Shown here: positions 1 to 31,470 of the stretch, piece after piece
Layout of the letters: every line of letters begins with the position of its first letter
Position numbering within the stretch: position 1 is the stretch's first letter
NCBI GenBank assembly: GCA_010405405.1
Contig: MU004233.1
Location: 695,122-759,121, forward strand
Origin: Microthyrium microscopicum
Lineage: Eukaryota
DNA: 64,000 bases
Reading direction: 5' to 3'
The notes under the pieces: model-generated
Told to the model about the DNA's origin: nothing
What the model saw: the letters and a program-made list of their open reading frames with translations, nothing else
Database searches by the model: none
Program-made: the position numbers and the translations under genes

Positions 1-2859
1 CTTACTATTATTCTATAATTATTAGATTAAATAAGTTCTTTTAAATCTATTTTATACTTAGTTATTATATATAGAATAGCGTAGCTTTATAATAATTTTG
101 CTAGTAAATAAACTTCTAGTTGCGTCTTTAATAAAGAAAGTAATTCCTTACTTTATTCCTATAACCTCTTTTTTATTACTACCTCTCTCTTTTACTACTC
201 TTTATAATTATAAGAATTAAATAAGTCCTCTTAAATAATTCCTTAAGTTTATTCTTTTATAAATAATATAGCTTAGTAATCTAAAGTTTAGGCTAAATAG
301 CTAACTTTTAGTAGTTATGCCTTTAGACTTTAGTATAGTAAATAAGTTACTACTTTTATTACTATTATTTATCTTCTCTTCTTAATACTTCTTTTTTCTT
401 AAAGAAAATACTATCTAAATCCTTTATATCTTCTATCTTTTTCTTAGCTCTTACTCTATCTATTATAAGCATAGCTACTTATAATGCTTTATATACTTAG
501 TAATTAGTATATAATTATAATAGCTAAATCTATAGTTAAGATATAGATAAAGACGAAATTTTTACTAAGATCTTTAGCTATTTAGCTATTATAATCCTAA
601 AACTTCTTCTTAATTAGTACAAAACTTATACTCTTTATAAGGATAATAAGCTAAATAATTTTAAGGCTATTAAAATATAAGTTTAAAGAAATTTATTTTC
701 TTATTCCTAGTTAATTACTTATATAGACTAAATTTTATAGCTATCTCTACCTACCTAGCTAAAGAGAATCCTTTACCTATATTCTTAGACTTAAGTAAAT
801 AAAATCTTAAAACTAAAAATAAAGGTAAAGTAAAAGTTTAAAATAGTTTAGAAGCTTCTAAATATACCTTTATACTAACGCCTTAAATAGATTCTAAGAA
901 TCTTTAATATACTATTTATAATCTTATAGTAAATCTATTTAATAGTAAGCCCTTAATTTAATAGATCTATAGCTTATAAGTATATTTAAGTAAGCCTTAT
1001 TTAGAAAATATACTAAAGAAAGGTTTAAAAGTAGCTCTTAGTAAAGATAATCTAGTTAATAAAGTAAATTAATACTTAGGTAATAATATTAATAATAAAG
1101 TTAATTAAGATAGTACTACTAGTAAGCCTAAATATATATATAGATTAAAAAAGAAGTATTAATAGGCTATAGTTTCTAATATTAAAGTATAATTCTTTAT
1201 AATAAAAAATAATAAATAGGTTACTTAATTTATATTAACCTTAACTATCTACCTATATTTTAGAAATAAGAGAAATACTTTTAAAGTTAATAAGAATAAA
1301 AATAATATATAGAAAAATATTATAACTTTAATAGTTAAAACTATCTACTTCTTACTAAATAATCTAATTATAAAGAAAAAAAAAATAAACTAGATAATTA
1401 CTAAGTTTCTTATAGTTATCCTAGAGAAGTAACTTATCTAGTTAGCTTATAAGATTAATTAAGACGTTAAATACTATAGAAGTATACTAGCTATAAGCTA
1501 TATAATTATACTTATTATTAAAATATACCTTAATCTATCTAATAACTCTTTTTAAGTCTACTCTATTATAACTAGCAATTTAATAGTTAATAGTAAAGAT
1601 ATTAAATTTAACCTACTTCTTTATTATCTCTAATATACTATTTAGAATTAATACTTTATAGTCTTCTAGTTCTTTAAGGTTAATACTAGCCTAGCTATAC
1701 TTATAGAAAAGAATCTTTCTTAGCTAATCTCTTAAGGTGCGTAAACTAATCTAGATATTATTCCTACTAATATTAATTATCTATTTATAAATAGCGTCTT
1801 TAGCCTATAGAAGGGTTATATTACTCTCCTAGATAATTATAATAATCTTATAAAAGTAAAGAATAATAGAATTATAAATTTATTATATATAGTCTATCCT
1901 TTAGTCCTATATCTATTTATAGCTTAGAGTATAAATCTAGTAGAATAGCTTTATTAGGCATATAAGTAGAATAAAGCTTTTTATAATACTATATTACACG
2001 CTACTAGAATACTAGGAAGTAAAAACTATAAATTCTTAGTAAGCCTTAATTTCTATATTATAACAAATAGATATAAATATCCCTATTTTTAAGAAAGTAA
2101 CGTCTATATAATCTAACTTAAGCTAGAAGCTAGACTTAAAGGCTTTTAATTTACTATTAAAGTTATTAACTAAGACTATAATATTTAAGCTACTTATAAC
2201 GTACTTATAATTATATACTATCCTTCTATTATACCTAATAATAAATATGCTAATAATACTTAATTCTCTTTATTCTAAATTTCTAAAGAAGTTATTATTT
2301 CCCTAAACTATAGCTAATTAATTAAGAACCTATATAAAGCCTTTCTTAAACTAAAAGAGCTAGAGGTTAAGGTATATATATATAATTTAGATAAGCTTAT
2401 TATACGCTAAATAAATAGTCTTAACTAAATATAGTTAAGATAGAAAAAATATAATCTAGATTACTACTTTACTATAGTACTTAGCTTATACCTAGACTTC
2501 TTAAAATATTAACCTTTATTAAAGAAGATTCTTACTATTTATACTTTACTCTTACTCCTTAGAAAGATAGAATTTAGTATTATATTAAAGTATACTAAAG
2601 AAGTATTAATAAATACTAACGCGCTAAAAGAGTTAACTATAAAGGTTAATAAAGTATAAAAGGATACTTTATTAGGTAACTTATTTTCTAGTAATATTAA
2701 GAATAACGCGTTAAAACTTTTAACTAGTTAGATTAAAGAAACTTTAAAAAAAATAAGTAGTAGTTCTACTTTATAAAAGCTAATTAATAAGCTACTTAAT
2801 CTAAATTTATCTAACTATATAACTAAATCTTAGTTTAAATAGGAATTTAAAGCTAATAA

Positions 2860-3270
2860 TAATAATACTTCTTATTCTCTCTTTCTCTCTATCTAAGATA
2901 ATATTAATATAGAATTCCTAGATACTACTATAATAGCGCTTCTCTATTCTATTAATAATAGTACCTCTTAACCCTTTTACCCCTTCATCTAAGATAATAT
3001 TAATATAGAATCCCTAGATACTACTATAGTAGTACTCCTTTATCTTAATAATAATAGTACTTCTTATTCTTCTTTCCCCTCTATCTAAGATAACGTTAAT
3101 ATAGAATCCTTAAATACTACTATAGTAATACCCCTTTATTCTACTAATAATAGCATCTCTTATTTTCTCTCTTCCTCTATTTAAGATAATATTAATATAG
3201 AATCCTTAGATACTACTATAGTAGTGCCCCTCTATTCTATTAATAATAGTACCTCCCTCCTTATAGAGTC
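2860..3270 (+). repeat. Four tandem 96-bp units (32-codon period)
   Basis: '(c/t)taagataa' recurs at 2893, 2989, 3085 and 3181; units differ mainly by transitions. Confidence 0.9.
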
Positions 3271-3307
3271 TTAAGCTTAGGATTAATAAACTAAGCTAGA
3301 AGTTACT

Positions 3308-3549
3308 AAAGCTAATAGTAAATAGGGTTAGTAATTAAAAGTAGCTAATAATGAATAGAGTTAGTAATTAAAAGCGGCTAACAATAAATAGGGTTAGTAA
3401 TTAAATATAGCTAACGACGCTAATAATAATAATAATAATAATAATAATACCTATAAAGATATACCTAAAGATATTTCTAATTCTAATAAATAGTTAGATA
3501 ATAAGATTACGCCTATAAAAAATACTAATAATACTAATAATAGTAATAC

Positions 3550-3580
<31 letters not shown>

Positions 3581-3615
3581 ACTAATGTTAATAATACTAA
3601 TATTAATAATAATTA
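3308..3615 (+). repeat. Three 33-bp tandem units followed by (aat)n tracts
   Basis: 'gctaa....aatag(g/a)gttagtaattaaa' x3 at 3311-3415; aat runs at ~3421-3449 and ~3525-3612, plausibly RIP-converted gat/gac acidic codons. Confidence 0.8.
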
Positions 3616-3779
3616 GTACTAGTTACTAAGCACTTTTATAGGACTAGGCATAGCTACTTCTATATAATTACTAAAGACTAACTTTAAAATTACCTTAGAA
3701 AAGATTTAAAATTTTATAAAAAAAGCAGAATAGATTAGTATTATAAAGGCTCTTTATAAGGATTAAAAAGAATTTATTA

Positions 3780-5770
3780 ATATTATTCTCTTAAAAGGTA
3801 GTAAGGATAGACTTAATATCTACTATACTAGGCTAGAATATAGTAAGACTAAAACTATAAAAGCTATAATAGCAATATTAATCGCCCTTATAATATTCTA
3901 TTCTAATTTTAAGATAAAGATTTTAGCTATATATACTATAAACGCATAATTAGATAACCTTATTACTAAGTATATAAATATCCATATAGAAGTTAATCTT
4001 ATAAACCTTTTACAATTTTTTGCTATCTAAGGATACTTAATTAAAATAGAGAAATTTATTATCTTAAGGAAATTAAAAGAGGTATAAATCTAAGTTTATT
4101 AAAATTAAAGTCTTAGTACGTAATAGTAGAATATAGATAATATAAATAACTATAGTACTAATATTCTAAATACTAAAATAATATTACTTACTAAATAGTA
4201 TAGTGCTTACTACTTATAATAACTCTATATAAATGCTAAACGTTAAAACTTTAAAGATATCTATAACTATTATATTAAATATTTTAAATACTTATTTAAA
4301 GAATTTATAAATTAAGCTAGTAAAATAATTAGCATAATTAACTTAGTAATAGGAAAGCAAAAATACAATATAGATATAGCTACTAAAGAGTTACTTAATT
4401 ATACTTTTAATTTCTAAATTCTTAACGAAAAGTATTATAATAGAAAGAAGCTCTTAAAGTTAGAGAGCGCTAATTATAGTAAACTACTACTAGATATAGA
4501 GCAATATTATTTATAATTAATAATTACTCTTCTTAGTCTTATAAACTATAACGCTCTATAAGAGCTTTTTTAGGCAAATTTTATAGATATTAACTTATAG
4601 ATTTATAATAAAGTAGCAGCATTATATAGACTATAGATAATAGCTATTATATCTTTATATAGACTTTAAATAATTATATAGACTAGAGATTTATTTTAGC
4701 TTAGACCTATTTATAATCTTAAATATAAAAAAGCTACGTTTTATAATAGTTCTTAAGCATTATTAATATATAACGCTATAGTAAATAGCTTTAGCTAAAC
4801 TATACTAAAATAAGTATTTAGATTTAATTTATTATACTATAATCTTCTTAATAATATAAGCTATAAAATTCTTAAATATACTAATAATAATAACCCTAAA
4901 TTTAACTAACTATAATACATTATAAGCTAGCTCTTTCTATCCTTAGAATATAAAAAAGATACGCTACTTATAATATTTATAAATATTAAAGATAGTAAAG
5001 TTAAAAAAGATATTATTAGTTTAAGTTCTAATACTTATAATACCTATATTATAGCCTTTATATAGATTAAACTTTTACTATAAATATAATTAAAAGGCGT
5101 TAATACTATAGTTATTACTCTTTACCTTACGTAAACTAGCCTCTATACTAAAACTAAAGATTAGCTACTTAAATAAGTTACTATATATATTTAGAATAAT
5201 TATATATATACCTAGTAAGATTATTAAGATATACCTTTATAATTTAGCTAGGTTTTAATAACTATTTATAATAATAGCTCTAGTACTAAGTATAATTAGA
5301 ATCTTATTAATCTTATTTAAAAAGATTATACTAGTTTCCTTATAGAAAACTTATAAATAAATACTATAATATCTTAAGGCTACTTATCCTTATTCTTTAG
5401 TAACTTAAAGCTTTATAGTACTATAATAGCTTCTAGTGCTAAGAAATAAGAGGAGTTTAAATAATCTATACTTAGTAGATTACTAAAGCATTTTATTAAT
5501 AATAGCTATATATAGTATATACTATTTACTAATAATTACTCTTATTAGAATTTAGAGAAACTTAATATTCTTAACTTTAATAGAGTAGTTTCTTATTATA
5601 AGAAAGAGCTAAATATACGTAAAGAAATTAAAACTATTATACTTAAAGAACTAGAGGCAATTAAAAATCTTATAGAACTAACCTTACTTTATAGTTTTAA
5701 ACCTAAGAGTAAAGAATTTAAAGCTAATAAAGCTAATAAAGAAGGTAAAGTTAGTAAAGATTAGTAGTAA
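3780..5770 (+). pseudogene. RIP-inactivated UPF1/DNA2/NAM7-like superfamily-1 helicase (AAA_11/AAA_12 type); frame probably extends upstream toward ~700
   Basis: All motifs lie in frame +2, in the right order, and revert by C>T/G>A only. 3830 RLEYSKT (Walker A, GPGCGKT); ~3920 ILAIYTINA*LDNL (motif Ia); 4607 NKV (DEA); 4685 RDLF*LRP (GDxxQLxP); 4802 ILK*VFRF (LxxQYRM-like); 5111 VITLYLT* (VITPYxAQ); 5333-5405 SFL...*INT..S*G....FSN (GFL..R.N...SR....GN). Ends approximate. Confidence 0.8.
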
Positions 5771-6539
5771 AAAATAGTAATAAGAAAAAAGATAGCAAGA
5801 AGGTTTAAGTTTAAAGTAAAGTTTATTTAGCTAATTAATTAACTAACTTAAATAGTATAATAGTTAGTATTAAATAAAAAAAGGGTTTAGGATAAAGGAG
5901 TTATATAAGTAGAAAAATTTAATAAAAAAGAATATATAAAGGGGTTAGACTAGAAAGGTAAATAGAATAGTACTATTACTAGAAAAGTTAACTTACTAAG
6001 CTAGTAATTAATAATATAAAGTTACGTAATACGTCTCTAGCGTAAAATTATAACTTATTAGTTATATAAGATTAGCTAGTACTTCTACTTAATCTTAGTA
6101 CTAGCTATCTAGAATATTTAGAAATATTTAGTACGTCTAGAAATATTTAGTAAGTAAAGGTATATTATATATATAATAAAATATTATTAAGTAATATTCC
6201 TAAGAGTTAACTCTATTACTTAAGCCTTAGAATACTAAGTAAAATTAAATGCTAGTTATTACTAGTATAAATTTAATACTAAATTTATTACTTATATACT
6301 AAGGATATATTTATATCTTTAAAAGTTAATAAGAACGAAATAGGTATAAAAGTTAATATACTAATATAACGCTTCTAGTATCGTATATAATAATAAAAAA
6401 AGATAATTAAATATAGATATATCTAACTTATATATTTTAGTTCCTTAGTATATATTTAACCTAAATAAGTTATATTACTATTCTTATAGACTAATCTTCT
6501 TAAATATAAGTATATTAAGTCTTTTAAATAGTATATAGT

Positions 6540-9500
6540 TCCTCTTTACTATAAATTCTTATAATTACCTCTAAAGGCTCTTTAATTAAGTATAAAGGTT
6601 AATACTAGTAATAAAAACTCTAGTAATAGAATCCTTTATAAATAGTCCCTTTACTAGTATAAGATTTATTACTTATCTTAGTTATAACTATACTACGTCT
6701 AAAATACTTATAATAAAAGATAAGATAATTATACCTTTTACTATACTCTTATTTTTAGCTACCTTTAAAGCTATAGAAAGAGTTACTACTCTAATATAGT
6801 ATAAATATAGTTTATAAAATAGAATAGATAAAGCTAATAAGTCTTAAAAGTCTAAGAGCAATATATAATATATAGTTAATAAAGTTATTATATACTTATA
6901 ATAAAATCTAAGATATCTAGTAAGTATATCTATACTAGCTTATAAAACTAATAAAAGCTATAACTAAATTAATAAGTATAAGCTACTACCTTAAAATACT
7001 ATTAAGATAGAGTACTAATATTATTATTTAGAAAAAGAAAAGCTTTATAAAGAAGTAAAGCTATAGAGTTAATTAGAAAAAGAATTAGAGTTTATTAGTT
7101 AGATAGTTTTTAGTAGTACGTTAAAGAATAAGATAAATAAGTTATTCTAGAGAATAGTCTTTAAGAGTAAAATACGTAACTTACTTAATTAAAAGGTAAA
7201 GGATTATAAATTACTAATAAAAAATATTAATAACCTTAAAGGCTTTATACCTAGTTAGTAAGAAGTAATACTTAAGGAGCTACTATATAATAAGATAAAA
7301 AGTATTAAAAATCTTTTAGGTAGTAAAGTTAAAGTATACTTTTAGAGTATCTTAGAGATTATTAAATTCTTTATCTCTTATAGGCCTTTTACTAAAGACC
7401 TTTACTTTAAGCTTATAATATAAAAGAATAAAGATAGTAAGTATATTTATACTAATACTTAATTAGTAGAAAGATAGTAGGAATTATAAAATAAGGTTAA
7501 TTTAGGTATTATACTTATTCCTATTTACTAGAAGTTAAATAAGACTATAATATTTAAATAATGTAGTAATAATTATATATAGGCTTACTATATAACTATT
7601 TTTAATCTATTAGGAAGTATTAGAAGAGCTATAGAAAGACTAGGATTTCTTCCTATTATAATACTTCTTAAGCTAAAAAGTATAAATATTAATAGTAAAC
7701 TTAAGATATTTTATAACGCTATAGATATTATATTTAAAGGTTTAATATTACGCATTTAAGTATTATAAAGCTATTTACTAATAAAATATAGAACTTAGAA
7801 TAGTCCTTAAGAGTAATTACGTTATAATAATTACTAATAACTAGTTTTAAAGGTATCTTCTAATTCTTACTTACGTAAGTATAAATTATAAAGAGCTTAT
7901 TATAATTATAAGTATTTAGTTTAAATATTATTATTCTATTTACTTAGTACTATAACTATATTAGTAAGATCTTACTAGTAAATAGGCCTATTAGACTTAT
8001 ATAACTTTATAAGAGAATATATTAAAATAGAAAGCACTTTACTACGCTAATTAAAAAAAAGAGTATACTAAGTAGCTTACTACTACTAATAATACTAAAG
8101 GTAAAGACTATATTTATAAAATTTATAATTTTACTTAAAATTATTCTTTATTAAATATTTATATAGTAATTACTTTTAATTTATTATATATATTCTTTTT
8201 AAATAGACTAGTTAAGTAAGTAATAGACTAGATAGCCTAAATTATTTTAGAAAAGAGAGTACTAGTAATATCTATAGCACTAGTAGCTAAAATAAAGAAT
8301 AATAGAGCTATATAGAAAACCTATACCTATAAGACGCTAAAGACTAAGAAGAAAAATAGTAATATACTAAAGACTAAGTAGAAGAAGAAAAAGAAGAAGT
8401 CTATATTTAGTATAAAAGCAAAGTCTATAATTAATTATAAGTTTCTATAGTATTTTATTTATTTAGGCTTTTTAAGGATAGCCTAAGGCTATTATAATAT
8501 TTAATAGAAGATTAGCCTAGAATTATAAGTACTTTTAAAGTAACTTATAGCTACCTTAGCTCTACTCTTAATTCTAAAGAATCTAATTATAATAAAATTT
8601 ATTAAAGCTTTAATAAATATTATTATACTTTCTAGCTATAAGTTATATAATAAAAATATACTTAAATATATATAAGTCTATTTATAAATTATAAAATATA
8701 CTAAAATAGTAATATATAAGTATAAGACTTTTTAAGCTAGGTTTAAAGAGCTTAATTTCCTTAAGTTTTATAACTTAATTTATCTTATACTATCTATTTA
8801 TATATTTAGTACTATAGATAGAACTAGTTCTAGTATTATAGAAAAGTTATATTAAAAGTATACTATACTAGTAGTAAAATAAACTAACTTTTAACTTAGT
8901 TAATATATTTAGATAATCTACTATCTTACTAATTATATTAAGAATATAATCTAGAATAATAATAATAACTATAACTATTAAGTCTATAATATTACTAAGA
9001 AAAAGATTATATCTAAAGAAACTTATCCTATAATTATTCTATTAAGTACGCCTAAATATAGTTTATAACTCTAATTATATTATATAGATAAGCTATATAA
9101 TAAGGGTATTTATAAATTTAGTATACTTCTTACTAAAGACGTTAGTAAATAAGCTAAGCTTAATAACCTTAAGGGTTATTTATATAGCTAGTTAATTAAT
9201 TACTATAAAAAAGACCTTAAGAAGTACTAGTCTTTTCTAAAGCTAATACTATTACGTATATAGGGTAAAGAAATATACTTAGATAAAGATCTTATTAATA
9301 ATAAACTAAACTTTATATACTTTAGTAAAGCATTATATCTTAACGCTTTTTAGCTAAGTTACCTTATTATAATACTATATAATAGTATAACCTACGTAAT
9401 AGATAATAATAAGAATAATATATAACTCTTTATAGCTTACTATAAATAGAAATAGTAAAAAGGTAAGGATAATAATTAATAGTATAATAAAGTCTTAACT

Positions 9501-10210
9501 AAGAACTACTAGTAATGTAACTTTATATAGGCTTAGGCCTATCCTATATCTAAGAAAGAGCTTAATAATAATTTTAGTCTTTTAGATTAACTTTTTATAT
9601 AACTACTTATTATTTATATAGTATATAATATAGATTAAATAATAAAAGATTTTAAATTATAGCGTAGATATACTAAATTTCTTATAGCTTTAGTTTAGAA
9701 GTATATACTAATCTTAGAAAAAGCTATAGAACTTATATTTAATAGGCTATTAGGTCTTATATTATTTAAGCTAGCTATAAAGTTAAAAGTATATAAACTA
9801 AATAAACTATTAACTATTATATATATAGTTCCTTATAAGGACTTAAAGTATCTTAATTACTATTAGTTAAATTTATATCCTAATTATAATAATTATACTA
9901 GAATATATAACCTAGTTACTTTTAGTAAATAAAGAATTAAGGCGGCTAAGGCTAAAACTATAGTAAGACGTAAGGCCTTAAAGAAAAAGAATAAAAAGCT
10001 TTATAAAGCCTAGGTTAAAGTTTATCTTAAGAAGCTTACTAATAGGGTAAAGAGAATAAAGTATAGTAATAAAAAAAAAGTAAAAAATAAAGAAGATAAA
10101 CTAAATAGTAGTAAAAAGGATAAGTAGAAAACTAATAAAGATAGTAAAGAAGAAACTAGTAATAATAGTAAAGAAGATAATAGTAACGATAGTAAAGATA
10201 TATAGTAAAA
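6540..10210 (+). pseudogene. RIP-inactivated Plavaka-family transposase
   Basis: From ~7442 frame +2 reads YIYTNT*LVER**EL*NKVNLGIILIPIY*KLNKT...SNNYI*AYYITIFNLLGSIRR, matching the Plavaka core WWxxQ..LP.G.T..PI...SDKT....GD..AW..Y.TI.N....RR. After a likely intron (~7740-7791) come PILA.V.VDYEE...CP.C-like remnants, and at 8751 LNFLKFYNLIY..SIYIFSTID....EKLY (FNFPKFH.L.H...I..FG..D....E..H). Acidic/basic tail ends ~10210. Boundaries approximate. Confidence 0.8.
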
Positions 10211-13105
10211 TAAAGGTCTAATAGACGTTTTATTACTTAAGAGTTATATATTTTATAGACTACTAAGTATTATTATTATTATTATAATATTATCTCCTAA
10301 GTAATTTAGTTTTATTAGTATTAGTTATAGACTTAAATATAATAGTTAGTATAATATAAAATATAATAAAATAAATTAACTTAAGAACTTTAAGAATATA
10401 TATTTATATAGAATAGTATATATATAAAAGGCAAAATTATTTATTCTTTTTAATAGCTTTTAATTTATAATTCTTTAAATAAAATAATAAGCTATTAATT
10501 TTAAATCCTTTTTCTTTAGTACTTATAATAATCTAAACTTATTTTACTTTTTTATCTTACTTTTAATATATATATCTTCTTTATACTTTACCTTAAGCTT
10601 TTATAAAGAGCTTATCTAGTTACTAAACCTAAACGTTACCTAATAATTATCTACTACTTATAGTAATAATTAAAATAGTAGCTATTTACCTTTATTATAT
10701 ATCTTTATTATCTTAGTTTTTAATAACCTTCTTTATTTATAATAATTTACTTAGTTAATTAATAACTTTACTACTACTTATTATAATACTATTATATCTT
10801 TTATTTAATTCTATTATAAACTATATACTATAGTCTTTAAGATAACTAAAAACTATACTTAACTCTTTTAGTATCTTTATTTAAAGTATACTCTTATCTA
10901 AAAAATATAAATTATAAATACTTAGAATTCTAGACTACTTATTAACTCCTTAAAGCTATTATACTAGCTAAATTAACTTCTAAGCTAGAAGAGAATAATA
11001 ATAATACCTTAGACTTAGATATAGAATCTCCCTTAGAAACTAATTAAACTAAACTTAAGTATAAAGTTTACTTAAACTCCTATACTACTTATTAGTAAAA
11101 CCTTAGTTCTACTAAATAGACTACTAGCTAACTTATAAATACTATATTACTAGACTCTCTTTAATAAGATATAGTCCTAGAAGTAAATAAGTAAGTTATT
11201 ACTATATAAATATATAAAAATTAGATTCTTAAGTAGGGCTTTAGCGTCCTTCTAAAAGTAGTTAGGCTATTAGTATTAGTACTAATAATAAAGGAGGAAA
11301 TATAGGCGTAGTATTTTAATATATATTAAAATATTTATAAAGTACTAAATCTATAGCTATCTATATAATATATATTATATTATAGTCTAATTAGAGTATA
11401 GTAGAAATCTTCTCTTCTTAGCTATAAATAGTAAAGCTCGTAATAAGAAGATAATTATTATATAAAGATATAAGGTATCTCTTTTTAAATAGATAAAGAG
11501 AAAGAATAAGATATAGGTATAAATAATACGCTATTTAAGAAAAATAGAAGTAAGAGTTTAACGTAAGCCTAATAGAATTTATAATCCTATTAGAATATCT
11601 TTAATTTCTTTATCTTTAAGTAAGTAAGACTTTATAATTAAAGCTTTTAGATCTACTCTTTACGTCTTAATAAGTATAAAGCTAGGTTTCTTTTAGTATA
11701 GTGCATTCTAAACGTTAGTGCTTAATCTTCTTAAGTTATTATAAATAAGTATATTAATATTAGTTAATTAGCTTCTATCTTACTTCTTTTATATATTAAA
11801 TCTACTCTACTAGTACTACTTATTATCTTTTAGCTAGCTCTTAATTAATAATTACGTTAGCTTTAGTAACTAATTAATTCTTATTCTACTATAGATAGTA
11901 ATACTTCTTCTACTTAACGCTATAAATATAATAAAACTAATTAACTATATTTATAACTAATTTTCTAGTATATTAGTATAAGATAGAAACTTAAAAAGTA
12001 TAGCTTACTATATATAGTAGTAGCTAGTATCTAGTTTAATTATTAATTTATAAGTATTATAATACTACTAATTTATTTTTATAGCTAGTACAAGTATAGC
12101 TTATAAAGCTTTATCTTTAAAATAGTTACTATACCTTATTAGTCTAGAATTATAATATCTTAATATATATTAAAGAGATAGTATCTATTATTTAAAGTAA
12201 TCTTAAAACAAGATATAGAAGCTATTAATAAAGATAAAAGACTCTAAAGGTTTAAGTATCTTTCTATATTATATTATTAAAAAAATATAATAATTAAGTA
12301 CCTTACCTAGTATATTTAGCTTTCTTATACTAAATATATATCTAATAGAAGCATTTATTATATATTATAACGTTAAGACCTAAAGCTATAAATAAAATAA
12401 AGAATTTTTCATAGCCTAATTTACTATAATAAAGCTAGTTCTTAGTAGTAAACTTAATAGCTACTAACTAAAAAGCGTTTAATTCTTTAGGTAATAGAAC
12501 TAGCGTAATAAGCTTAATTATAACTTTTTATTAATAGCAACGTAAAGAGAAGTAGTTTTTATCTTTAGTAGCTAGTAAGAAGAGCTTTTTTAAAAGATTT
12601 AGAAGTTATTATTCTTTAGTAGCTTAATAATAATATTATAAAAGCTTTTAGTAGCTAAATAAAGAAAAATATTAGATAGTACTATTAATAGATTTAGGGC
12701 TAAATATCTCTAAAGTTACAACTAAACTAAAACTTACTAGAATATTACTATTATTAAACTAAACTTAACTCTTATACGTTCTATCTTCTATTAATATTCT
12801 TAATATATTCCTTATACTCTACTATACTCCTTCTTACTTATACCTATAGCTATTATATTCTATATTATATTTAGGTATTTATTACTATTATTTAAATTAA
12901 ATAAATAGCTATTTATAATAGCTATAATATATAATAAACTTATAACTAAAATTAAGCTAAACTATATACTAAAGCAGAAGGTTATTAAGATTTTTAGACT
13001 TATTAATACCTTATTTAATATACTTTAACTTATATTTATTAGTACTATATTAGAGTACTAAAGTACTAGAGCTAGACCCTCTTTCTAACTCTCTTAATTT
13101 CTTAC

Positions 13106-13505
13106 TACTAAGGTATAAGCTCCTTTTTATCTTTAAATAAGTTTAAGTAATAACTTATAGAACTTAAGGTAGCATTATATTAATAATAAAATAGTATTAA
13201 TATAATATTATTTCTTAAAGAGTTAATATATAGCTACTATAAAGGCAAAATAGCCTTAGAGTAATACTATAAAAGAATAATTATAGCGCTAGTATTAAGG
13301 TAAACGTTACTATATTACCTTAATAATATTCTTATAAGTATTATATTATAAGTATATACTAATTATATAATAATAATAATAATAACGCATAGCAGTATAC
13401 TACTAAGGTATAGATTTCTCTTCCTCTATAAATAAGTTTAAGTAACGACTTATAATACTTAAGGTAGTATTATATTAATAATAAAATAGTATTAACGTAA
13501 TATTT
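13106..13505. repeat. ~100-bp direct repeat at 295-bp spacing
   Basis: 'tactaaggtata...aataagtttaagtaa..acttata..acttaaggtag.attatattaataataaaatagtattaa' at 13106 and 13401. Confidence 0.8.
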
Positions 13506-15179
13506 TCTCTAATAAGATTTTATAAAAGAGAAATAGTACATTAAATAAAAAGTAAAAGACTTATTAGTAATAATAATAATTTATATAGATAATAGAATTT
13601 TACTTTAAAGTTACTACCTTAATATTTTTATTTATTATTTAAAAGCCTAGTAGTATTATAATAAGTACTACTACTATACGCTTTATAAACCTAATCTATA
13701 GAACGTTATATACTTATACTATAGCTTATTATACTATAAGATATACTAAAGTTAGCTCTAGTAATTTAAATTAAGTCTTTATAAATATTTCTAGACTTTT
13801 AAGTATATATAAACTTATATTTACTTATAAAGTAGATTAGCATATAGATAACTATTATCTTATATCTACTTTATCTTATGCCTACTATATAGTTATCTTT
13901 ATTATAAACCTATATTACTAAAATAATTTTTAAAGTTAAGGATAAAGTTAAAACTAGGCTAGCTACTCTATCTAAGTAATATTTTATACTTTAGTACTCT
14001 AAGTATAAAAGATACCCTATTAATATTATTATCTATTAAAATAGTATATTAAAAGAATAATATAAAATAGCCCTTAATACTAAACTTTTCTAACTCTATA
14101 AACTATATAAAGGGCTCTATTCTATTAATAATACTACTATAAGCCTTCTATATATAATACTTATTATTATAGCTAAATATCCTTATAATTTCTATTCTAC
14201 TAGCCTCTAAGATACTAGCTATAAGAGTAACTATTACCTTCTAGTATTTATATAAGAGTAGTTTTCTATTTACTATAAAAATTAAGACTTTAGTTATATA
14301 CTAATAGGATATATATACTATAAAAAATTATAAATATTAAATAAGATTCTTAAAGTAGGTAATTATATATCTAGTAATAGGGCTACTATTTTTAAACTAT
14401 TAAGTAGAATATTAAGAAGAATTTTAAATACGTAACTACTTTTAATAGTAATAGAGATTAACTTAATACCTATTATGCTTTACCTTAACATTTATTATTA
14501 CTTACGTCATTACTTATATACTTATTAGTTTTAGTTATTTCTAAATAGATTACCCTTATCTTAAACCTACTACCTAAAAACTAGTTCCTTACTATTACTT
14601 TTATTATTATAAATAATTAATATACTACTAAAGAATACCCTTAACTAAAGTAATTATATGCTTACTCTATTTATTTAGCTTATATTATTCTATAATAAAC
14701 CTATATTACTAAAATATAAAGTTAGAGTTTATAAAGTTAATAGTAATACTATTACTTCTTAAAATACTTAAGTAAGGCTTTATAACTAGCTTTAACTAGC
14801 TTTGCTACCTATATTTTAACTAATCTATTTAAAATAGTAATTATAGTAATATTAAACTACTAAACTTTTCTATTAATATAGAAGCTATATTTAGTATAAA
14901 AGTAATACTTTTAACTTAATATATATTACTATAAAGGAAAGCTATTACTACTTAGCTTCCTTAGAGAATACTATATTTAGAGGCTATTACTATTATATAT
15001 AGCTACGTTACCTTTTCTTACTTATACTTTTAAAGTACTCTAGAAGTCTAAGAACGTTTAGAAAAGTACTTTAGGTATTTACTACTTAATACTCTTTATT
15101 CTCTATAAGATCTACTTTATATAAGAAAAGGTTAAAGATATTATAGTAATACTTAGTATACTACTCTACTTCTACTACT

Positions 15180-15830
15180 ATAAAAGTTACTTTTATAGCT
15201 ACTACCTTAGCCCTTCTATATCTTTATTTTAATTACTATAGAACTTACCTTTACTACTATTACCTCTTTCTTTATTATTATCTTAACTACTATAGAATTT
15301 ACCTTTACTATATATTCTATATATCCTAAGGCCTTTAATATTTTAGTTAGCTTTATAAATAAAGTAATAGAATTATATTAAAGTTTAGAAGTAATAAGAA
15401 GAAAGAAGATAGAAATAAAAGATATAGCTAGGCTATTATTAAAGCTACTAAGTAGATACTAGAAGAAGCGTAATTAATAATAATAATAACTACTATCTCC
15501 TTCTTTATTAAATCTACTTTTATATTAACTACTATAGAATTTACCTCTATAGCTATTACCTCCTTCTCTATTAAACTTACCTTTACCTTAACTACTATAG
15601 AATTTACCTTTATAACTACTACCTCCTTCTTTATTAAACCTACCTTTACCTTAACTACTATAGAATTTACCTCTATAGCTATTACCTCCTTCTCTATTAA
15701 ACCTACCTCTACTTTAACTATTATAAAATTTACCTTTATAGCTATTATAATTACTATAGTAAAATATAAAGGGCTTATTAAGTTAAAGAATATAGAAATT
15801 AAAGTAATAAAGGAATAAACCTTAGGCAAA
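15180..15830 (-). repeat. 63-bp (21-codon) tandem repeat, probably a RIP relic of a repeat-containing coding region
   Basis: 'actatagaatttacc' at 15531, 15594 and 15657, with related copies at ~15235 and 15289; gives the EKEVIAIEVNSIVVKVKVGLI repeat of ORF 15428..15829. Confidence 0.8.
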
Positions 15831-17212
15831 AATTATTCTTAATTATATTAGAATAGTAGATATCTAAAGATTTAGTAGTTACTAAAGTAATTACTAAGGT
15901 ATAATAACCTTTCCTTCTTAGTTAAGATAGTACTTTTCTTAAATCTTTTCTTTAGCTTTAACTTAATTTAATCTCTTCTCTCTCTCTTTATTTTACTTTC
16001 TACTTAGCTTAAGTATAAAAAAAGCGCTTATTAAAGTTATTTTAATAGCTTTTATATAGTATAATACTAAAATATTACTATACCTAAAAAAGTACGTTTC
16101 CTTATAGCTACTTAAGACTTTAAACCTTATATATAAAGTAAAAGAAACCTTATTTTCTTATATTATAGATACTCTTTATATAAAAGATAAGAAAAATTAA
16201 TAGCTAAGTATAGGTAGCTTATTTTCCTTCTTTACTTTATTTTCTATACTTACTTAGTTCCTTTAAATTAATTATATAAGACGTATACTTACTTTATAGT
16301 CTCTTTTTTTATAATAGATATAATAAATAGAGTTCTAGATAACTCTTACCTTCTTAAATTAGTAGTAGACTATATATATTTATATACTTATCTACTATAA
16401 GAGCGTAAAGAAGTTATAAAGCTTTATCTTATTTACTATTTAATTAATATTATACTATTATATATAGTAAGACTACTTTTTATAAGCTTATATTTATTAA
16501 GATATAGAAGTAGCTATATAGTTTTATATAAGTAAATACTATTTCTTATCTATATATACTTAATAAGTAGTTTTAGTTATATATAGCATATAAATAATAT
16601 ATATATAGATATTTAGTATAGCTATATAACTTTTATATTATTAAAGTTATAAATATTAAGTAGTTTAATAATATATTTACTATTAGTAAATAGAAAAAGG
16701 CGTTTTAAGTATACCTTCCTAAATTAGAAGTTAACTAAGTAGGTTTACTATTTCTAGATTATAGTTAACTTAGTAAAGTAGTTAAGGACGTAGATTCTTA
16801 ATATTAGGAAGTACTTATTAATAAGATAATCTTTTTTAGGTAAATTAAGTAAAGCGTTTAATTAACTTTATATTATATTATAAAAGAAAAGTAGATAGCT
16901 TATTTTAGAAGAATTCTTTATTAGGCTAGCAAATTATAGTAGAGTTATAAGAAGCTAAGAGATTACCTTTAGCTACTACTCCCTATAATAAATATCTTAG
17001 TAACTATTTAGTTTATATTAATTAAAATAGTATCTAACGTTAGCTATAATAATTAGCTAACTCTTCTTTAACTTCTTAATATATTCTTTAACTACTTTTA
17101 CTAATCTAATATAAATATAGCTATAATTAAACTATAAAAAGTCTTTCTATTTATTAGAGCTAATTTATAATAGCTTTATCTTAATAGTAGCTTATTAACT
17201 CTTTAAAGATAC

Positions 17213-17935
17213 TATACTAGTGCTTAACTTATAACTTCTTATATATTAGTTAATATTAACGTTAGTAAGGTAGCTTTCTATTCTAGTAGGCTACTACCTA
17301 AGCTTATAATATTCTATTAGAGTAATTATAATACTACTAATATATATAAATTAGCTTAGTTCTTATTTTATATTTATATAAAACTAACCTATCTAAAAGA
17401 GCAAAAGAATAAAGCTAGCTAAGTAGTTATATAAGCAAAGGATATATATAGCTTAGCTAATATTAATAATAGCTACTTCTCTAATAAGAAGTTACTACCT
17501 AACTCTAATCCTATACTTAGAGAACTAATATAAAGTTTCTATATTTAGTATAAGCTATAACTATCTACTATCTATACTAGTGCTTAACTTATAACTTCCT
17601 ATATATTAGTTAATATTAATATTAGTAAGGTAGCTTTCTACCCTAATAGGCTACTACCTAAGCTTATAATATCCTATTAAAGTAATTATAATACTACTAA
17701 TATATATAAATTAGCTTAATTCTTATTTTGTATTTATATAAAACTAACCTATCTAAAAGAGCAAAAGAACAAAGCTAGCTAGATAATTATATAAGTAAAA
17801 GATATATATAGCTTAGCTAACGTTAATAATAGCTACTCCTCTAATAAGAAGTTACTACTTAACCCTAATTCTATACTTAGGGAACTAATATAAAGTTTCT
17901 ATATTTAGTATAAGCTATAACTACCTACTATTTAT
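17213..17935. repeat. Tandem duplication with a 360-bp period
   Basis: Lines 17221-17580 and 17581-17940 align column for column; differences are almost all C/T and G/A. Confidence 0.95.
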
Positions 17936-18299
17936 AGATTATTATTCTTATCTAGTAATCTATTAATAACTAGCTATCCTAGCTTTATTATATTTATAAT
18001 AAGAGCCTAAATATTTTAGTAAAAGCTTATCTTCTTACTCTTAAGAATATACTTAATAGCTATAATTTCTTTATATACTTATAAAAGCTAGCTAGACTAA
18101 GAATATTAAGAAGCTATCTAATTACTAAGTTATTTTTTGCTATTACTTACCTAAGCTTCTAAAGTACTAACTACTATGCTTACTATAAGAATATTTAAAG
18201 GCTATAATCCTACTACTAAAGCTTTAGGTAATAATACTAAAAATAAGTCTAGTACCTAAATAATCTTAATTATATTAGAGTTAAGGTAAACGTAATTAT

Positions 18300-21200
18300 T
18301 ATTACTATAAATAACTACTCTAAGTATTTAATCTACCTACTTATAAATAAAGTTAAAGTAGTCCTTAGCTACTTCTTTAATAAGTTAAAAGTATAGATAT
18401 ATTTATTAACGTAATTACTTAGTTTCGTACTTTAACTTTATAGAAGCGTATACTAAATACTTAAAAGGAAAGTAAAGTTAATAAGAAATAGACTTAGTAA
18501 TAAAAAGTATAGAATATATAAACTCTTTAACTACTTTAGTTAATAAACTAACCTTTATAGTTCTTAACTTAAAAGATATAACCTATAAGTATACAAAATT
18601 TATTAGTAATTAGCTAATATATATTCTAAAAGCATTACTTACTAATAGACGCTTTAAAGTTTTAAAATTCTTTAATTACTTTATTACTAAAACTAGTACC
18701 TAGCTTATAAGAATCCCTTATAGTATTATAATTAAACTACTTTTAGTACATTAGTAGGTTAATAACTCTAATATTATTAGATATTCTACTTTTCTTTATA
18801 GAAGCTTTTCTATTACCTAATTTATTTATTAGCCTTAGACTAAGAAAACACCTACTACTATAATATAGGCTTTCCTACCTTAATAATTAGTATACTTTTA
18901 TTAACTTAAAGATAACTACTTTTCTTAATAATATTTATTAGATTACTAAGTCCTTACTAATATAAGAATTATAAAGATACTAAACTCTTAACCCTAGCTT
19001 TATATAGCATTCTTTAACTACATTTATTATAAAGAAACCCCTTTCTTTATCCTAAAGGAAAAGCCTATATAAGATACTACTAAAATATCTAAGGAAATAT
19101 TTAAAAAAATCTAGTCTATTTACTATTACTCTTATTATTATAGTTAACTAATATATTACTAAAGGTACTATTACCTTACCTACTCTTAATATTATTACTA
19201 CTTTATCTAGGTACTAAATATATCTAAATATAATAAAAGTTGCTAGTAAGTAACGTTCCTATATGTAGTAATAACTTCTAGATAACTATTATTACTCTAA
19301 GTATCTAATCTACCTACTTATAGATAAAGCTTAAGGTAGTTCTTAGCTACTTCTTTAACTAATTAAGAGTATAGATGTATTTATTAACGTAATTACTTAA
19401 TTTAACTATAAAGGCAATATACTACTTACTTAGTAGAGTATAAGATATAAAAATAGCGCTATCTTAACTAAAAAGAAAAGGTTATTACTCCTTAATAACT
19501 ACTTTAGTAACTATTAAGTCCTTAAATATAACCCTAGCTTTATATAGCGTTCTTTAACTATATCTATTATAAGAAAACCCCTTTTATTATCTTAGAAGAA
19601 GAGCTTATACAAGATACTACTAAAATAACTAAAGAAATATTTACCTACTTAATACCTTTACTATATTACTTAAGTATTCTTACCTAGTTTAATAGCTATA
19701 TAATAGTACCTCTATTAGACTAGGAATAGTAGATAAATCTCTAACTCTACTAATTACGTAAAGAAGTAAATAGCACTATATAATTAAAATAACAACTAAG
19801 CTACTTTTAGCTTAATTTATATACTATTTACTATTACTCTTATTATTATAGTTAACTAATACACTACTAAAGGTGCTATTACCTTACCTACTCTTAATAT
19901 TATTACTACTTTATCTAAGTGCTAAATATATCTAAATATAATAGAGATTACTAGTAAGCAACGTTCCTATATATAGTAACGACCCCTAGACGACTATTAT
20001 TACTCTAAGTATTTAATCTACCTACCTATAGATAGAGCTTAAGGTAGTCCTTCCTTTATTATATTACTTAAGCATTCTTACCTAGTTTAATAGCTTATTA
20101 AAGGCATTTATAAAAGCTTATAGTATATTAAATATTTCTTCTTATTATTAAGCAAAATTATACTAGAAATATATTCTACTTAGTAAATTCTTTAGACTTT
20201 AAATCTAATACGTATATAAACTACTAGAGTTAAGAACGCTACTAAAAGCCTCTTAAGTCTAGCTTAATAAACTATATAATAGTACTAAATATAGAAATTT
20301 TTAAAGAAAACTCTCTTATTTCTATAGGAAAAATAATTTAAGAAAGAAAAAAGTTAATAATACCCTTTAAGTAGTATAAAATAAAAAAAACTTCTTTAAT
20401 ATACTATAACTAGTCTTTAATATTAATCTTTATTAGATTAGGAATAGTAAATAAATCTCTAACTTTACTAGTTATATAAAAAGGTAAGTAGCACTATATA
20501 ATTAAAATAATAACTAGGCTACTTCTAGCTTAATTTATATACTACTTACTATTACTCTTATTATTATAATTAACTAATATACTACTAAAGGTACTATTAC
20601 CTTACCTACTCTTAATATTATTACTACTTTATCTAGGTACTAGATATATCTAGATATAATAGAGGTTGCTAGTAAGCAACGTTCCTATATATAGTAACAA
20701 CCCCTAAATAACATATAGTATTAAGGGTTATAAGGCTTTATATAGAATTTTCAAAGTATACTATAGGTATAATTAGATACGCTAAATAGATTCACTACTA
20801 TAGGCGCTAGTTATTACTCTAAGCATCTAATCTACCTATCTATAGATAAAGCTTAAAGTAGTTCTTTCTCTACTATATTACTTAAGTATCCTTACCTAGT
20901 TTAATAGCTATATAATAGTACTAGATATAGAAATTTTTAAAGGAAACTCTCTTATTCTTATAAGAAAGATAATTTAAGAAAGAAAAAAGTTAATAGTACT
21001 CTTTAAATAGCATAAAGTAAAAAAAACTTCTTTAGTATACTATAACTAGTCTTTAATATTAATCTCTATTAGACTAAGAATAATAAATAAATCTCTAACT
21101 CTACTAGTTACGTAAAGAGGTAAGTAGTACTATATAATTAAAATAATAACTAGGCTACTTATAGCCTAGTAGAAGTAATGTCTTACCCTTAGTATAGTAA

Positions 21201-22270
21201 GTATATAAGACCTTATTATAAAGAATTATATAGTATATAAAATAAGTAATACCTTAAAGTATAGAGTAAGATTAGAGATAAAAGTCCTAAGTATAAGCGT
21301 TAATAATACTATAATTAATAATAATACTAAGATAATAGTTATTATTATAGTCTACGTCCTAGAGACTAGTAAAATAAAAATAAATATAGTAGTACTTTAT
21401 AATAATAAAGAGTATTATACGCAAACTTAGCTTAATTTATATACTACTTACTATTACTCTTATTATTATAGTTAACTAATATACTACTAAAGGTACTATT
21501 ACCTTACTTTACCTTACCTACTCTTAATATTATTACTACTTTATCTAGGTACTAAATATATCTAGATATAATAAAGATTACTAATAAGTAACATTCTTAT
21601 ATATAGTAATAATCCTTAAATAACTATTATTACTCTAAGTATCTAATCTACCTACCTATAAATAGAGCTTAAAGTAGTCCTTAGCTACTTCTTTAACTAG
21701 TTAGGAGTATAGATGCATTTATTAACGTAATTACTTAATTTAATCATAAAGGTAATACATAGCTTACTTAACAAAGCGTAAAATATAAAAATAGCGCTAT
21801 CTTAACTAAGAAAAAAAGGTTATTACTCCTTAGTAACTACTTATAGTAGTAACTACTAAGTCCTTAAATACCTTCTTAGTTAGCTATAATAAATATAAGA
21901 AATATATTTTTCTACTAGGTCTAGGAAATAAAAGCCTAGTTATATATCCTACTTATAACCTACTAAAACTAGAATAATAATATTAAAAGCTAATTAAAAC
22001 GTTTAGGAAGGATAGATTATAAAAGCAATATATAGCTTACTTAAGGCGTAAGATATAGGAATAGTAATATCTTAACTAGTTAGAAAAGGCTATTACGCCT
22101 TAGTAGCTAATTATATAGTAATTTTTAATCCCTTTCCTTAAAAATTATATTTTCTACCTAAAGATTATAACTACTTTATCTAGATACTAGACATATTTAG
22201 ATACTAATATCTAGATATATTTAGATATATTTAGACATATCTAGATATATAGAAAGTTACTAGTAAGTAT
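18300..22270. repeat. Mosaic array of shuffled 60-170-bp modules
   Basis: Module A (tactctaag.at.taatctaccta) at ~18316, 19285, 19992, 20811, 21622; B (actattactcttattattata.ttaactaat) at ~19121, 19831, 20549, 21451; C at 18991/19531; D at ~20307/20944; E at ~19715/20433/21069; F at ~19451/21789. Confidence 0.85.
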
Positions 22271-22329
22271 TATTTATATTCTATTATACATAGCTCTAGC
22301 TATAATAAATTTACTTAAGTATAGTATAA

Positions 22330-22730
22330 GCTATACTTAAATAACTATAATATACTTAATAAGTTTAAAATATTTTAAATAGTTTTATAATATTTCTAAT
22401 AAAGTATATAATATCTTATATATATTTAATATCTTTATAATAAGTTTAAAANNNNNNNNNNNNNNNNNNNNNNNNNNNNNNNNNNNNNNNNNNNNNNNNN
22501 NNNNNNNNNNNTACCTAATAAGTTTAAAATATTTTAAATAGTTTTATAATATTTCTAATAAAGTATATATTATCTTATATATATCTAATATTTTTATAAT
22601 AAGTTTAAAATAATTATAATATACCTAATAAGTTTAAAATATTTTAAATACTTTTAAAATATTTCTAATAAAGTACGTAGTTATCTTATACGTATTTAAT
22701 ATCTTTATAATAAGTTAAATATAACTTTTC
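22330..22730. repeat. ~110-bp tandem repeat array containing the assembly gap (60 N at 22452-22511)
   Basis: 'taataagtttaaaatattttaaata' at ~22358, 22517 and 22627, on both sides of the gap; true copy number unknown. Confidence 0.85.
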
Positions 22731-22767
22731 TAGTATAATATATAGTCTAATTTGTAATGTATAATAA

Positions 22768-22780
22768 TTTTTTTATAATG
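22768..22780 (-). mobile_element. Candidate CACTA-like terminal sequence of an element inserted into the gypsy
   Basis: Reverse complement cattataaaaaaa differs from the En/Spm terminus CACTACAAGAAAA only by C>T/G>A changes, and lies exactly where the gypsy RT frame stops being recognisable. Confidence 0.45.
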
Positions 22781-28700: not shown

Positions 28701-29351
28701 ATAAAGAGAGAAAAATAATAGTAATTATTAGTAAAGGGTAGTTTATTAACTATTATCTAATATTATACTACTTCTTACTAGGTAGTAATAGTTATAATAT
28801 AGTTAAGGCTTACTCTTAATATTATTAAGCAATTCTTTATACTTAAAAATAAATTATAAAGGAAGTTTTAATAAAGAATTAAAATAGATAAAATAGGTTA
28901 GTAGAGAAAAGTAAATAAAGATTAGAAAGTTATATAATATCTAATACTAGTAGTTATATAGTAAAAATGCTTTATAAAATAATTCTAGTAAGATAGTAAA
29001 GATAGAAAGTATAATAAAAAAACTACTAAGAAAACTCTAAGCTTAAAGTAAGGGGTTAATTAATAAGCCTATAAGAATATAAAGAATAAAATCTTTTAAA
29101 GAATATATACTATGCTTTAAGGTTAATAGAGCTTCTTTTATTTATCTTTATAATAAAGATAATTAAAAGAATTAAAAACTTATTACTACTACTAAAGAGA
29201 AAGCATATAGTAAGATAAAGTCATAGTAAGTAAGATAATAGAATAAGGAAGCTATCTAGCTTCTAATCCCTAAAGGGGATGAAATATCTATCTGACCCTA
29301 GCCCTACCTCTTTAGGAATAGGTAAGAGCTATGATCTAACGTCACGTATCA
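22781..29351 (-). mobile_element. RIP-degenerated Ty3/gypsy LTR retrotransposon, 5' half (LTR, gag region, protease, RT), truncated before RNase H/integrase
   Basis: One minus-strand frame: protease YINLG (CIDSG) at 25339-25347 and LLVSIDIL ~25100; RT FNKL*A*GKIE..PF..LVFIV*K...INKITIKDTYL...NAKFFFY*F...F*NSPSYV**FIN...IYINNF (YIDD at 23086-23097), LGFL..ILEK, TR*L*EYILRY. Outer end reads TGATACGTG from 29351, consistent with an LTR 5'-TG. Inner LTR end not located. Confidence 0.88.
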
Positions 29352-30806: not shown

Positions 30807-31470
30807 ATTGGAAAACAGTAGTGATGTTATCTGATGTCTCTCCTTTGGTCAAATGTCCAGTAGATCACCTCATGGTATTGAGGAAGTCAGTTTGGAACCA
30901 GGTCGGATTGCGGAAACGTCGTCAGCACCGTGGACATGCGCCTGAGCTGGCAGTGCACCAATCCGCTTCCGTGGCTGAGTCCAGTCTGGGCATACCTAGC
31001 CCATCAAATGGAATAGCTACTTCGTAAGGCTGAATCGACGTGGCGTTAGGCTGAACATGAAGTAAGAAATTCTCCCTTGGTCGATCGACAATTATTAGCT
31101 TTGTACATGATTTGTCTTGCAATCTCAGCTAGTAAATCATGTCCAGAAGTTCATTGGCTTTTTAAGAACAGAATGTCAACATGGTGGTTAGCTTTCGCAG
31201 TCTCTATACTGAGTACTCAATGTCGCTATCAATCACAGTCTTACCATGTTCAGCCTGACTGGCCAAAATCTCAATAAATGCATGCGATATGCGCAGGAAT
31301 AAATTGGCACTTTTCCTTTCAATGTTTTTCATGATTGGTTTCCCTCCAGACCATCTCTTGCCTGTTGACCATGTGATGACGTGACGCTTTACTTTCCGGT
31401 CTTGCTGTTGACTCTATTTTGTTCGCATATCTTGTCCTTGTTTCAAGATGTCATGCTTACTATATCAGCC

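Follow-up and report, generated by a model that had tools for sequence, protein, structure and literature searches.

A degraded UPF1-like helicase next to a Plavaka transposase relic in a RIP-saturated block of the Microthyrium microscopicum genome

Introduction

Dead transposons of filamentous fungi can be mutated so heavily that their genes escape every open reading frame (ORF) track, and one such locus in Microthyrium microscopicum raises the question of whether a cut-and-paste transposon once carried a helicase of a kind that such elements are not expected to encode. The locus lies in a stretch of 64,000 nucleotides of contig MU004233.1 (assembly GCA_010405405.1, positions 695,122 to 759,121 of the forward strand), referred to here as the window, to which all coordinates below apply. 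A first-pass annotation of the window, made from its letters and translations, had described a fossil UPF1-like helicase with seven motifs in a single frame at 3780-5770, adjacent to a Plavaka transposase, and had proposed that the helicase was borne by the transposon. We asked whether a helicase is present at all, to which family it belongs, and whether it and the transposase were parts of one element. The helicase relic is confirmed to be present, in a single frame without any frameshift; its sequence places it with the UPF1-like superfamily 1B (SF1B) helicases; and its membership of a two-gene Plavaka element is a reading that we favor tentatively.

Results

The helicase lies in DNA saturated by fungal repeat-induced point mutation (RIP). 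The AT-rich part of the window runs from position 1 to ∼29,200 with a GC content of 17-24%, as compared to 42-55% in the remainder. The two RIP indices differ accordingly between the AT-rich and the GC-normal part (TpA/ApT, 1.68 vs 0.71; (CpA+TpG)/(ApC+GpT), 0.06 vs 1.29), every segment of the AT-rich part falls within 1.49-1.95 and 0.02-0.15, respectively, and the C that is left there stands nearly always in CpT and the G nearly always in ApG. The block 1-29,200 is thus RIP-saturated. Stop-free stretches of at least 60 codons number only five within positions 1-12,000, the longest having 73 codons, and because these stretches are so short, genes in this region are not visible as ORFs.

To read through such damage, we used a script that computes the likelihood of each observed codon under each ancestral amino acid, in a model in which ancestral C and G are seen as T and A, respectively, at rate r, any other change has a rate of 3%, and codon usage is that of the normal genes of the same window. 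The codon likelihoods were aligned to profile hidden Markov models by a local Viterbi algorithm in which long gaps are cheap. Reference helicases were obtained by scanning prokaryotic genome contigs with the back-translated pattern TVDxFQGxE, yielding 120 loci (80 with flanks), from which 62 open frames with a Walker A motif and more than 450 residues were retained; AAA_11 and AAA_12 were above their Pfam cut-offs in all eight of the reference proteins checked. Helicase cores were excised from 59 of the 62 frames, the other three having no Walker A at a usable distance, and were split by motif spacing into subgroups A (n = 33, nuclease-fused), B (n = 20, SMUBP-2-like), and C (n = 6). As a control, three genes each of subgroup B and of the PIF1 family were mutated in silico down to 20% GC, a further 5% of noise was added, and the products were scored with leave-one-out profiles. 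They scored 258-306 bits (subgroup B) and 284-372 bits (PIF1) with the profile of their own family and 17-28 bits with that of the other, the expected outcome in 12 of 12 runs, and the RIP-aware method is therefore both sensitive and specific.

Scored with the subgroup B profile, the chunk at 3602-6001 (+ strand, codon phase pos%3=2) reached 58.6 bits and ranked first among the 144 chunks that cover the AT-rich block in all six frames (median 15.6, sd 2.3). The chunks in second and third place (39.3 and 28.6 bits) overlap it in its own frame, and the best non-overlapping chunk had 21.2 bits; 200 codon shuffles of the target gave a mean of 17.5 bits (sd 2.8, maximum 29.9). The alignment stays in one reading frame over window positions 3698-5398 and takes in columns 6-436 of the 472 in the profile, and as no other frame of the region rose above noise, there is no sign of a frameshift in the helicase. 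It covers 27 of the 30 strongly conserved profile columns, and at 21 of these 27 the codon is RIP-compatible (C>T/G>A only) with the consensus, nine being still identical; in 100 realigned shuffles the number of RIP-compatible columns averaged 3.9 and never exceeded 11. In each of 8 settings (r from 0.3 to 0.9, two gap schemes), the target stood above the null maximum. The helicase is as invisible to an ORF track as had been claimed, with every open frame on the + strand at this site at most 71 codons long. Because SMUBP-2-like genes mutated in silico scored 258-306 bits and the relic far lower, it must either be related no more than distantly to the reference set or have decayed further than the controls. 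A mixed profile of all 59 prokaryotic cores reached 20 bits under its native gap costs and 35.7 bits once gaps were relaxed, and the subgroup profile was used in its stead; the profile of the nuclease-fused subgroup A gave 27.7 bits on the fossil, barely above noise.

Conventional searches, for which frames were translated straight through with an X at each stop, returned no helicase. Pfam reported no families in the three + strand frames of 3600-6001 at E≤1 and nothing helicase-like in six frames of 1-14,501 and 14,401-28,901 at E≤0.1, and the helicase region had no matches in a phmmer search of all PDB chains (E≤10), in a word-indexed search of 5.8 billion proteins (E≤10), or in a phmmer search of 1.84 billion cluster representatives (E≤0.001). 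The raw translation did not reach the Pfam gathering scores for AAA_11 (PF13086) and AAA_12 (PF13087), as is expected after saturating RIP, so that the membership in these two families that the first-pass annotation implied is borne out by the RIP-aware alignment and not by a Pfam match. Taken literally, the refutation criterion set in the first-pass annotation goes against the raw sequence, but that criterion was framed for a de-RIPed one, to which the RIP-aware comparison is the nearer equivalent. Standard tools are blind to the helicase because, when the RIP model is removed (r = 0), the target exceeds the null maximum in just one of two settings.

The motifs are listed below (+ strand throughout), with consensus strings taken from the profile and asterisks standing for stop codons.

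3698..5398: RIP-degraded helicase core assigned to the UPF1-like SF1B class (AAA_11 + AAA_12 type), RIP-aware alignment, 58.6 bits
3752 (L) and 3764 (Q-derived stop): Q-motif-like LxxxQ, RIP-aware alignment
3827..3850: Walker A (motif I), read TRLEYSKT, from [A/T]GPGxGKT, RIP-compatible
3920..3961: motif Ia, read ILAIYTINA*LDNL, aligned to VLVCAPSNTAVDNL, 15.6-bit block
4607..4621: motif II, preferred placement, NKVAA from DE[A/V]AA, 26 residues N-terminal to the motif III GD
4418..4429: motif II, alternative placement, ILNE, preferred by the relaxed alignment
4685..4708: motif III, read RDLF*LRP, from GDxxQL[G/R]P, 19.6-bit block
5108..5134: AAA_12 hallmark, read IVITLYLT*, from I[G/A/V]VITPYxxQ, 14.4-bit block
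5186-5203 or 5210-5236: motif V core (TVDxFQGxE), two candidate placements from the alignments
5336..5383: motif VI region, read FLIENL*INTIIS*GY, from FLxDxRRxNVAxSRA, 14.6-bit block

The motif blocks score between 9.8 and 19.6 bits, and much of their damage has the form that RIP would leave. In Walker A, RIP can produce the codons CTA, GAA, and AGT from codons for P, G, and G, respectively, and the AAG-ACT pair (K-T) is intact; the conserved D of motif Ia at 3953 and the Y (TAC) of the AAA_12 hallmark at 5123 are likewise intact. Motif III has AGA from G, an intact D (GAT), a stop from Q, L (CTT), and P (CCT), and the two stops of motif VI, at 5354 and 5375, fall on conserved R columns (CGA>TGA/TAA). 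NKVAA is most plausibly motif II, judged from its family-like spacing in the alignment that keeps the profile's own transitions. The Q that follows DEAA in motif II and the E of QGxE in motif V are RIP-incompatible in either placement. Since motifs II and V can each be placed in two ways, the number of firmly placed motifs is six (Q-motif-like, Walker A, Ia, III, ITPYxxQ, and VI) and not the seven first described.

Which family the relic belongs to was addressed with further profiles. A PIF1 profile, built from 30 PIF1 helicases taken by Pfam family (PF05970) from Bacteroidota genomes, gave 21.2 bits, inside its null distribution (maximum 23.6, n = 70), and a PIF1 or Helitron-type identity was rejected. 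With 58.6 bits on the UPF1-like profile and PIF1 at noise, the relic is, on the strength of its alignment, a UPF1-like SF1B helicase of the AAA_11/AAA_12 type and not a PIF1 helicase, and the class given by the first-pass annotation stands. For eukaryotic relatives, a profile search for long proteins returned 705 matches, and subfamily profiles were made from hand-picked subsets of the best 120 of the 705 (null n = 70), with the following scores on the relic.

IGHMBP2-type, 7 sequences: 52.4 bits, z 19.7
Mixed unclassified eukaryotic helicases, 14 sequences: 52.5 bits
Sen1, fungal and other, 12 sequences: 29.9 bits, above noise, z about 6
Vertebrate senataxin (SETX), 5 sequences: 30.1 bits, above noise, z about 6
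Helicases fused to RNA-dependent RNA polymerase (RdRP), 3 sequences: 23.8 bits
Dna2, 2 sequences: 19.4 bits, noise level
Upf1, 1 sequence: 15.6 bits, noise level

As the number of sequences varies from profile to profile, their ranking is not a phylogeny. The nearest profiles are, by score, those of the SMUBP-2/IGHMBP2 type, of which the relic appears to be a distant relative at best; a specific link to Upf1, SAD-3, or Hrr1, the helicases named in the first-pass annotation, would go beyond these scores, among which the single Upf1 sequence is at noise. Scoring against 138 single cores (118 eukaryotic, 20 prokaryotic) revealed no close relative that stands out, the best all lying at 30-35 bits. 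The RdRP-fused proteins (P0054, P0055, and P0060, ∼2000 residues each, from ENA and Logan), which combine an RdRP domain (PF05183) with a C-terminal AAA_11/AAA_12 helicase, are weak against the fossil.

The relic shares the order and spacing of the Q, I, Ia, III, ITPYxxQ, and VI motifs with the SMUBP-2/IGHMBP2/Hcs1-type helicases, and shares the superfamily fold and motifs with Upf1, Sen1/senataxin, and Dna2. It differs from the former in what precedes the core: their N-terminal 1B-barrel region was not detected upstream, where instead ∼950 unrelated coding-like codons with tandem repeats are found. To delimit this and other degraded genes, coding-like stretches were defined by stop density per frame and by base composition per codon phase, with the following result.

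750..5770, + strand: putative ancestral ORF1, ∼1670 codons, pos%3=2, stop-poor and with 3-base periodicity
2853-3255, + strand: 96-bp tandem array, 4.2 copies (Tandem Repeats Finder)
3310-3414, + strand: 33-bp tandem array, 3.2 copies (Tandem Repeats Finder)
3521-3613, + strand: (AAT)n array with a period of 3-9 bp (Tandem Repeats Finder)
5762..5770, + strand: three consecutive stops (TAG TAG TAA) followed by loss of codon periodicity, the likely end of ORF1 as judged from sequence, translation, and periodicity
5771..6300, no strand: spacer of ∼530 bp without codon periodicity (phase test p = 0.68; stop density similar in all frames)
6300..7950, + strand: coding-like stretch, pos%3=2, putative N-terminal part of the transposase relic (stop density 0.06-0.09; weak periodicity, p = 0.048)
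7304..7744, + strand: Plavaka transposase domain relic, PF18759 (Pfam, profile positions 36-195 of 325)
8100..10500, + strand: coding-like stretch, pos%3=0 (stop density 0.03-0.09 vs 0.19-0.31 in the neighboring frame)

Throughout ORF1 the stop density is 0.05-0.11, as compared to 0.15-0.35 in the neighboring frame, and the tests of phase composition agree on one shared pattern (750-2850, p = 6e-10; 3698-5398, p = 6e-7; 5399-5770, p = 6e-4). As periodicity spans 750-5770, the helicase constitutes the C-terminal third of this ∼1670-codon stretch. The tandem arrays (2853..3613) stand just upstream of the core; every period is a multiple of three, and the arrays appear as direct repeats also in purine/pyrimidine space. 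A repeat period that is a multiple of three itself yields phase heterogeneity, so a periodicity p-value within the arrays is uninformative. Further upstream, 750-2850 (+ strand) comprises ∼700 stop-poor codons with 3-base periodicity in the phase of the helicase, and has no Pfam match. An N-terminal domain of the SMUBP-2 type was found nowhere in the AT-rich block, and a comparison of the upstream region with N-terminal regions taken from 63 eukaryotic helicases yielded nothing but matches of low-complexity appearance, none of them credible.

The Plavaka match lies ∼1.5 kb downstream of the helicase, on its strand and in its codon phase. It was obtained with E = 2.5e-4 (20.8 bits) in a frame of 4833 residues and with E = 1.7e-5 (24.7 bits) on a piece of 633 residues, and no family other than PF18759 was reported when 12 frame translations covering 1-28,901 were screened at E≤0.1. 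A search of protein databases with the translation of the Plavaka part for homologs returned no matches. The stretch at 8100-10500 is strongly periodic (p = 2e-11), with the phase pattern of the upstream stretch shifted by one base; Pfam gave nothing credible for it, and it may be the remainder of the transposase gene, set off by a frameshift or an intron near 8000. On the domain match, a Plavaka neighbor of the helicase is credible.

Several features of the remaining DNA were recorded. Other repeat relics within the AT-rich block (15486-15747, 17212-17936, and 19116-21891) comprise a 63-bp array, a duplication of 360 bp, and several scattered segments whose purine/pyrimidine patterns agree to 90-100%, and none resembles the helicase or Plavaka regions; the block also contains an assembly gap of 60 N (22452-22511). 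A HET-domain gene (PF06985, E = 4e-26; 29349-30848, - strand) is found right where the RIP block gives way to normal DNA, at ∼29.2 kb. Beyond it, the GC-normal part has genes ordinary for a filamentous ascomycete (HET domain, polyprenyl synthetase, APP1 phosphatase, PTR2, MFS, XPG-type nuclease, and a RED-like protein), as well as an open frame of 2989 codons (52410-61379, - strand) with no Pfam family at E≤0.001. Four sequencing runs contain the stretch, all from one sample and study, with no RNA run among them.

Discussion

The arrangement of the two relics fits a two-gene element of ∼10 kb. The coding stretches 750-5770 and 6300-10500 are co-oriented and separated by a 530-bp spacer, and periodicity is lost outside both: it is absent from 1-750, 5771-6300, and 10,500-14,500, and the coding-like blocks follow one another, all of them on the + strand. 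The ancestral element would have been a Plavaka/CMC (CACTA-like) cut-and-paste transposon with the helicase in an accessory gene (750-5770) and, 530 bp downstream on the same strand, a DDE transposase gene (6300-10500) that includes the Plavaka domain, both genes presumably moving as a single unit. RIP acts on duplicated DNA, and as all parts are saturated, the helicase stretch was presumably once repeated or embedded in a repeat. That the helicase and Plavaka relics formed one transposon of this kind is nearly an even call, leaning slightly to the negative.

A number of observations weigh against that arrangement. Neither terminal inverted repeats (TIRs) nor a target-site duplication was recognized, and no inverted repeat between the flanks, in purine/pyrimidine space, rose above the noise of shuffled sequence (68 bits). 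Plavaka TIRs are of the 5'-TGT, 5'-CATCA, or 5'-CATAC type and are accompanied by target-site duplications of 2-3 bp, and short TIRs would be unrecognizable here after RIP. No second copy of the helicase or the Plavaka part exists within the window, protein-database searches with the relic translations found no intact homolog, and PF18759 occurs in none of the best 120 of the 705 long helicase relatives. The better of the two PF18759 scores, 24.7 bits, is itself below the Pfam curated cut-off of 26.3. The residual CpA/TpG index is 0.147 in the helicase core vs 0.021 in the Plavaka part, and the GC skew is of opposite sign (-0.07 vs +0.09), a contrast that could reflect different histories. Finally, a shared strand and phase would be expected by chance about 1 in 6 times, and unrelated relics commonly sit side by side in RIP blocks. 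With no TIRs, second copy, or intact relative, a transposon-borne helicase is thus something that we infer; what holds of the original proposal is the Plavaka relic ∼1.5 kb downstream on the + strand.

Several of these observations also speak for the alternative in which the helicase relic comes from a separate repeated unit, either an uncharacterized transposon or a multi-copy gene family, that happens to lie beside an independent Plavaka relic. The missing TIRs and second copy, the differing residual index and skew sign, the non-periodic spacer between the relics, and the presence of other unrelated repeat relics in the rest of the block all favor it. However, such a unit would require equal novelty, because no transposon class with a UPF1-like helicase was found in the literature searched; 530 bp is short for the non-coding ends of two elements; and orientation and phase are common to both relics. 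We regard two independent units as unlikely, if still a serious contender.

Less probable again is a former host helicase gene, such as a duplicated Hcs1/IGHMBP2-like paralog, that was killed by RIP after its duplication or by RIP spreading from a neighbor and was never mobile. RIP strikes any duplicated gene, and the top profiles (52.4-58.6 bits) are those of cellular SMUBP-2/IGHMBP2-type helicases. The relic lies, however, ∼23 kb inside the AT-rich block, far from the nearest normal gene, and its mutation is saturating over ∼5 kb; no single cellular helicase is close to it, all scoring 30-35 bits, and the N-terminal domain of the SMUBP-2 type was not detected upstream. A host origin is therefore a poor fit in our estimation. 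The idea that there is no helicase, and that the motif-like strings are chance products of translating AT-rich low-complexity DNA, can draw on the empty conventional searches and on a model whose permissiveness (T for C, A for G) eases chance matches, but it was tested and rejected as having next to no probability, since, the overlapping pieces of the same frame aside, the 143 other chunks, the 200 shuffles, and the other five frames never exceeded 29.9 bits as compared to 58.6, the matches are collinear over the whole profile in one frame, and the PIF1 profile does not score.

A two-gene Plavaka element, which we continue to favor tentatively, would be in keeping with what is known of accessory genes in this group of CMC/EnSpm-related transposons, to which the PF18759 match downstream of the relic on the + strand likens the locus. 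In the portions of the reports consulted, the accessory genes of Plavaka elements are TET/JBP dioxygenases in Agaricomycotina (PMC12730594), the group of PlavakaA and PlavakaB, and PAG1-3 in red algae (bioRxiv 10.1101/2025.02.11.637652); Plavaka is present in Pezizomycotina as well, in Tuber (PMC12581995), and published Plavaka/EnSpm elements with accessory genes are given as reaching 17-20 kb, those of Plavaka up to 17-19 kb. The difference lies in the cargo, which those portions name as dioxygenases, methylases, and SET proteins, and never as a helicase. Mobile elements that encode their own helicase are listed among the sources of fungal helicase domains, in the sections consulted of PMC10799480, as Helitron, AcademH, and KolobokH, via PIF1, DEAD, and Helicase_C. 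The resemblance of the locus to these ends there: their helicases are PIF1-type SF1 or SF2 enzymes (PIF1 in Helitron; DEAD/Helicase_C in AcademH and KolobokH), and the PIF1 profile is at noise on the relic. It also counts against our proposal that a UPF1-family helicase in a Plavaka/CACTA or other cut-and-paste transposon was not found in the literature as far as those texts extend, and Repbase or the papers' supplements may contain one. The fuller claim is of a ∼10-kb Plavaka/CMC element of Pezizomycotina in which the DDE transposase was preceded by an accessory gene of ∼1670 codons with a UPF1-like SF1B helicase at its end; it is put forward more hesitantly than the union of the two relics, as a proposal that is rather more apt to fail than to hold.

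Any role of such a helicase is speculative. In the live element, an ATP-driven 5'-3' translocase may have aided transposition at the DNA level, perhaps by stripping the element ends of proteins or RNA:DNA hybrids, or through a part in donor-site repair. Between the two roles first suggested, we consider aid to transposition more likely than interference with host silencing, which is a speculative preference. At the present day the element has no coding function and is part of a heterochromatin-like AT-rich block, and because the element is dead, no functional inference is possible from this copy.

The method may be of use whichever origin is correct. By modeling the likelihood of C>T/G>A decay, it found a domain that had been missed by Pfam, PDB, and two billion-scale protein searches, and the same RIP-aware approach could annotate further RIP-saturated regions of fungal genomes. 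If the two relics are merely neighbors, the helicase simply adds another dead gene to the contents of a RIP block. If they were one element, it would represent the first DDE transposon lineage with a UPF1-like SF1B helicase; elsewhere, this family is known to act in RNA surveillance, R-loop removal, and replication. Such an element would also add a new accessory function beside TET/JBP and PAG1-3, widening the set of accessory genes in CACTA-like transposons, and would provide a way to ask of what use a UPF1-family motor is to a cut-and-paste element, be it in work at the ends, in repair, or in interfering with RNA-based silencing.

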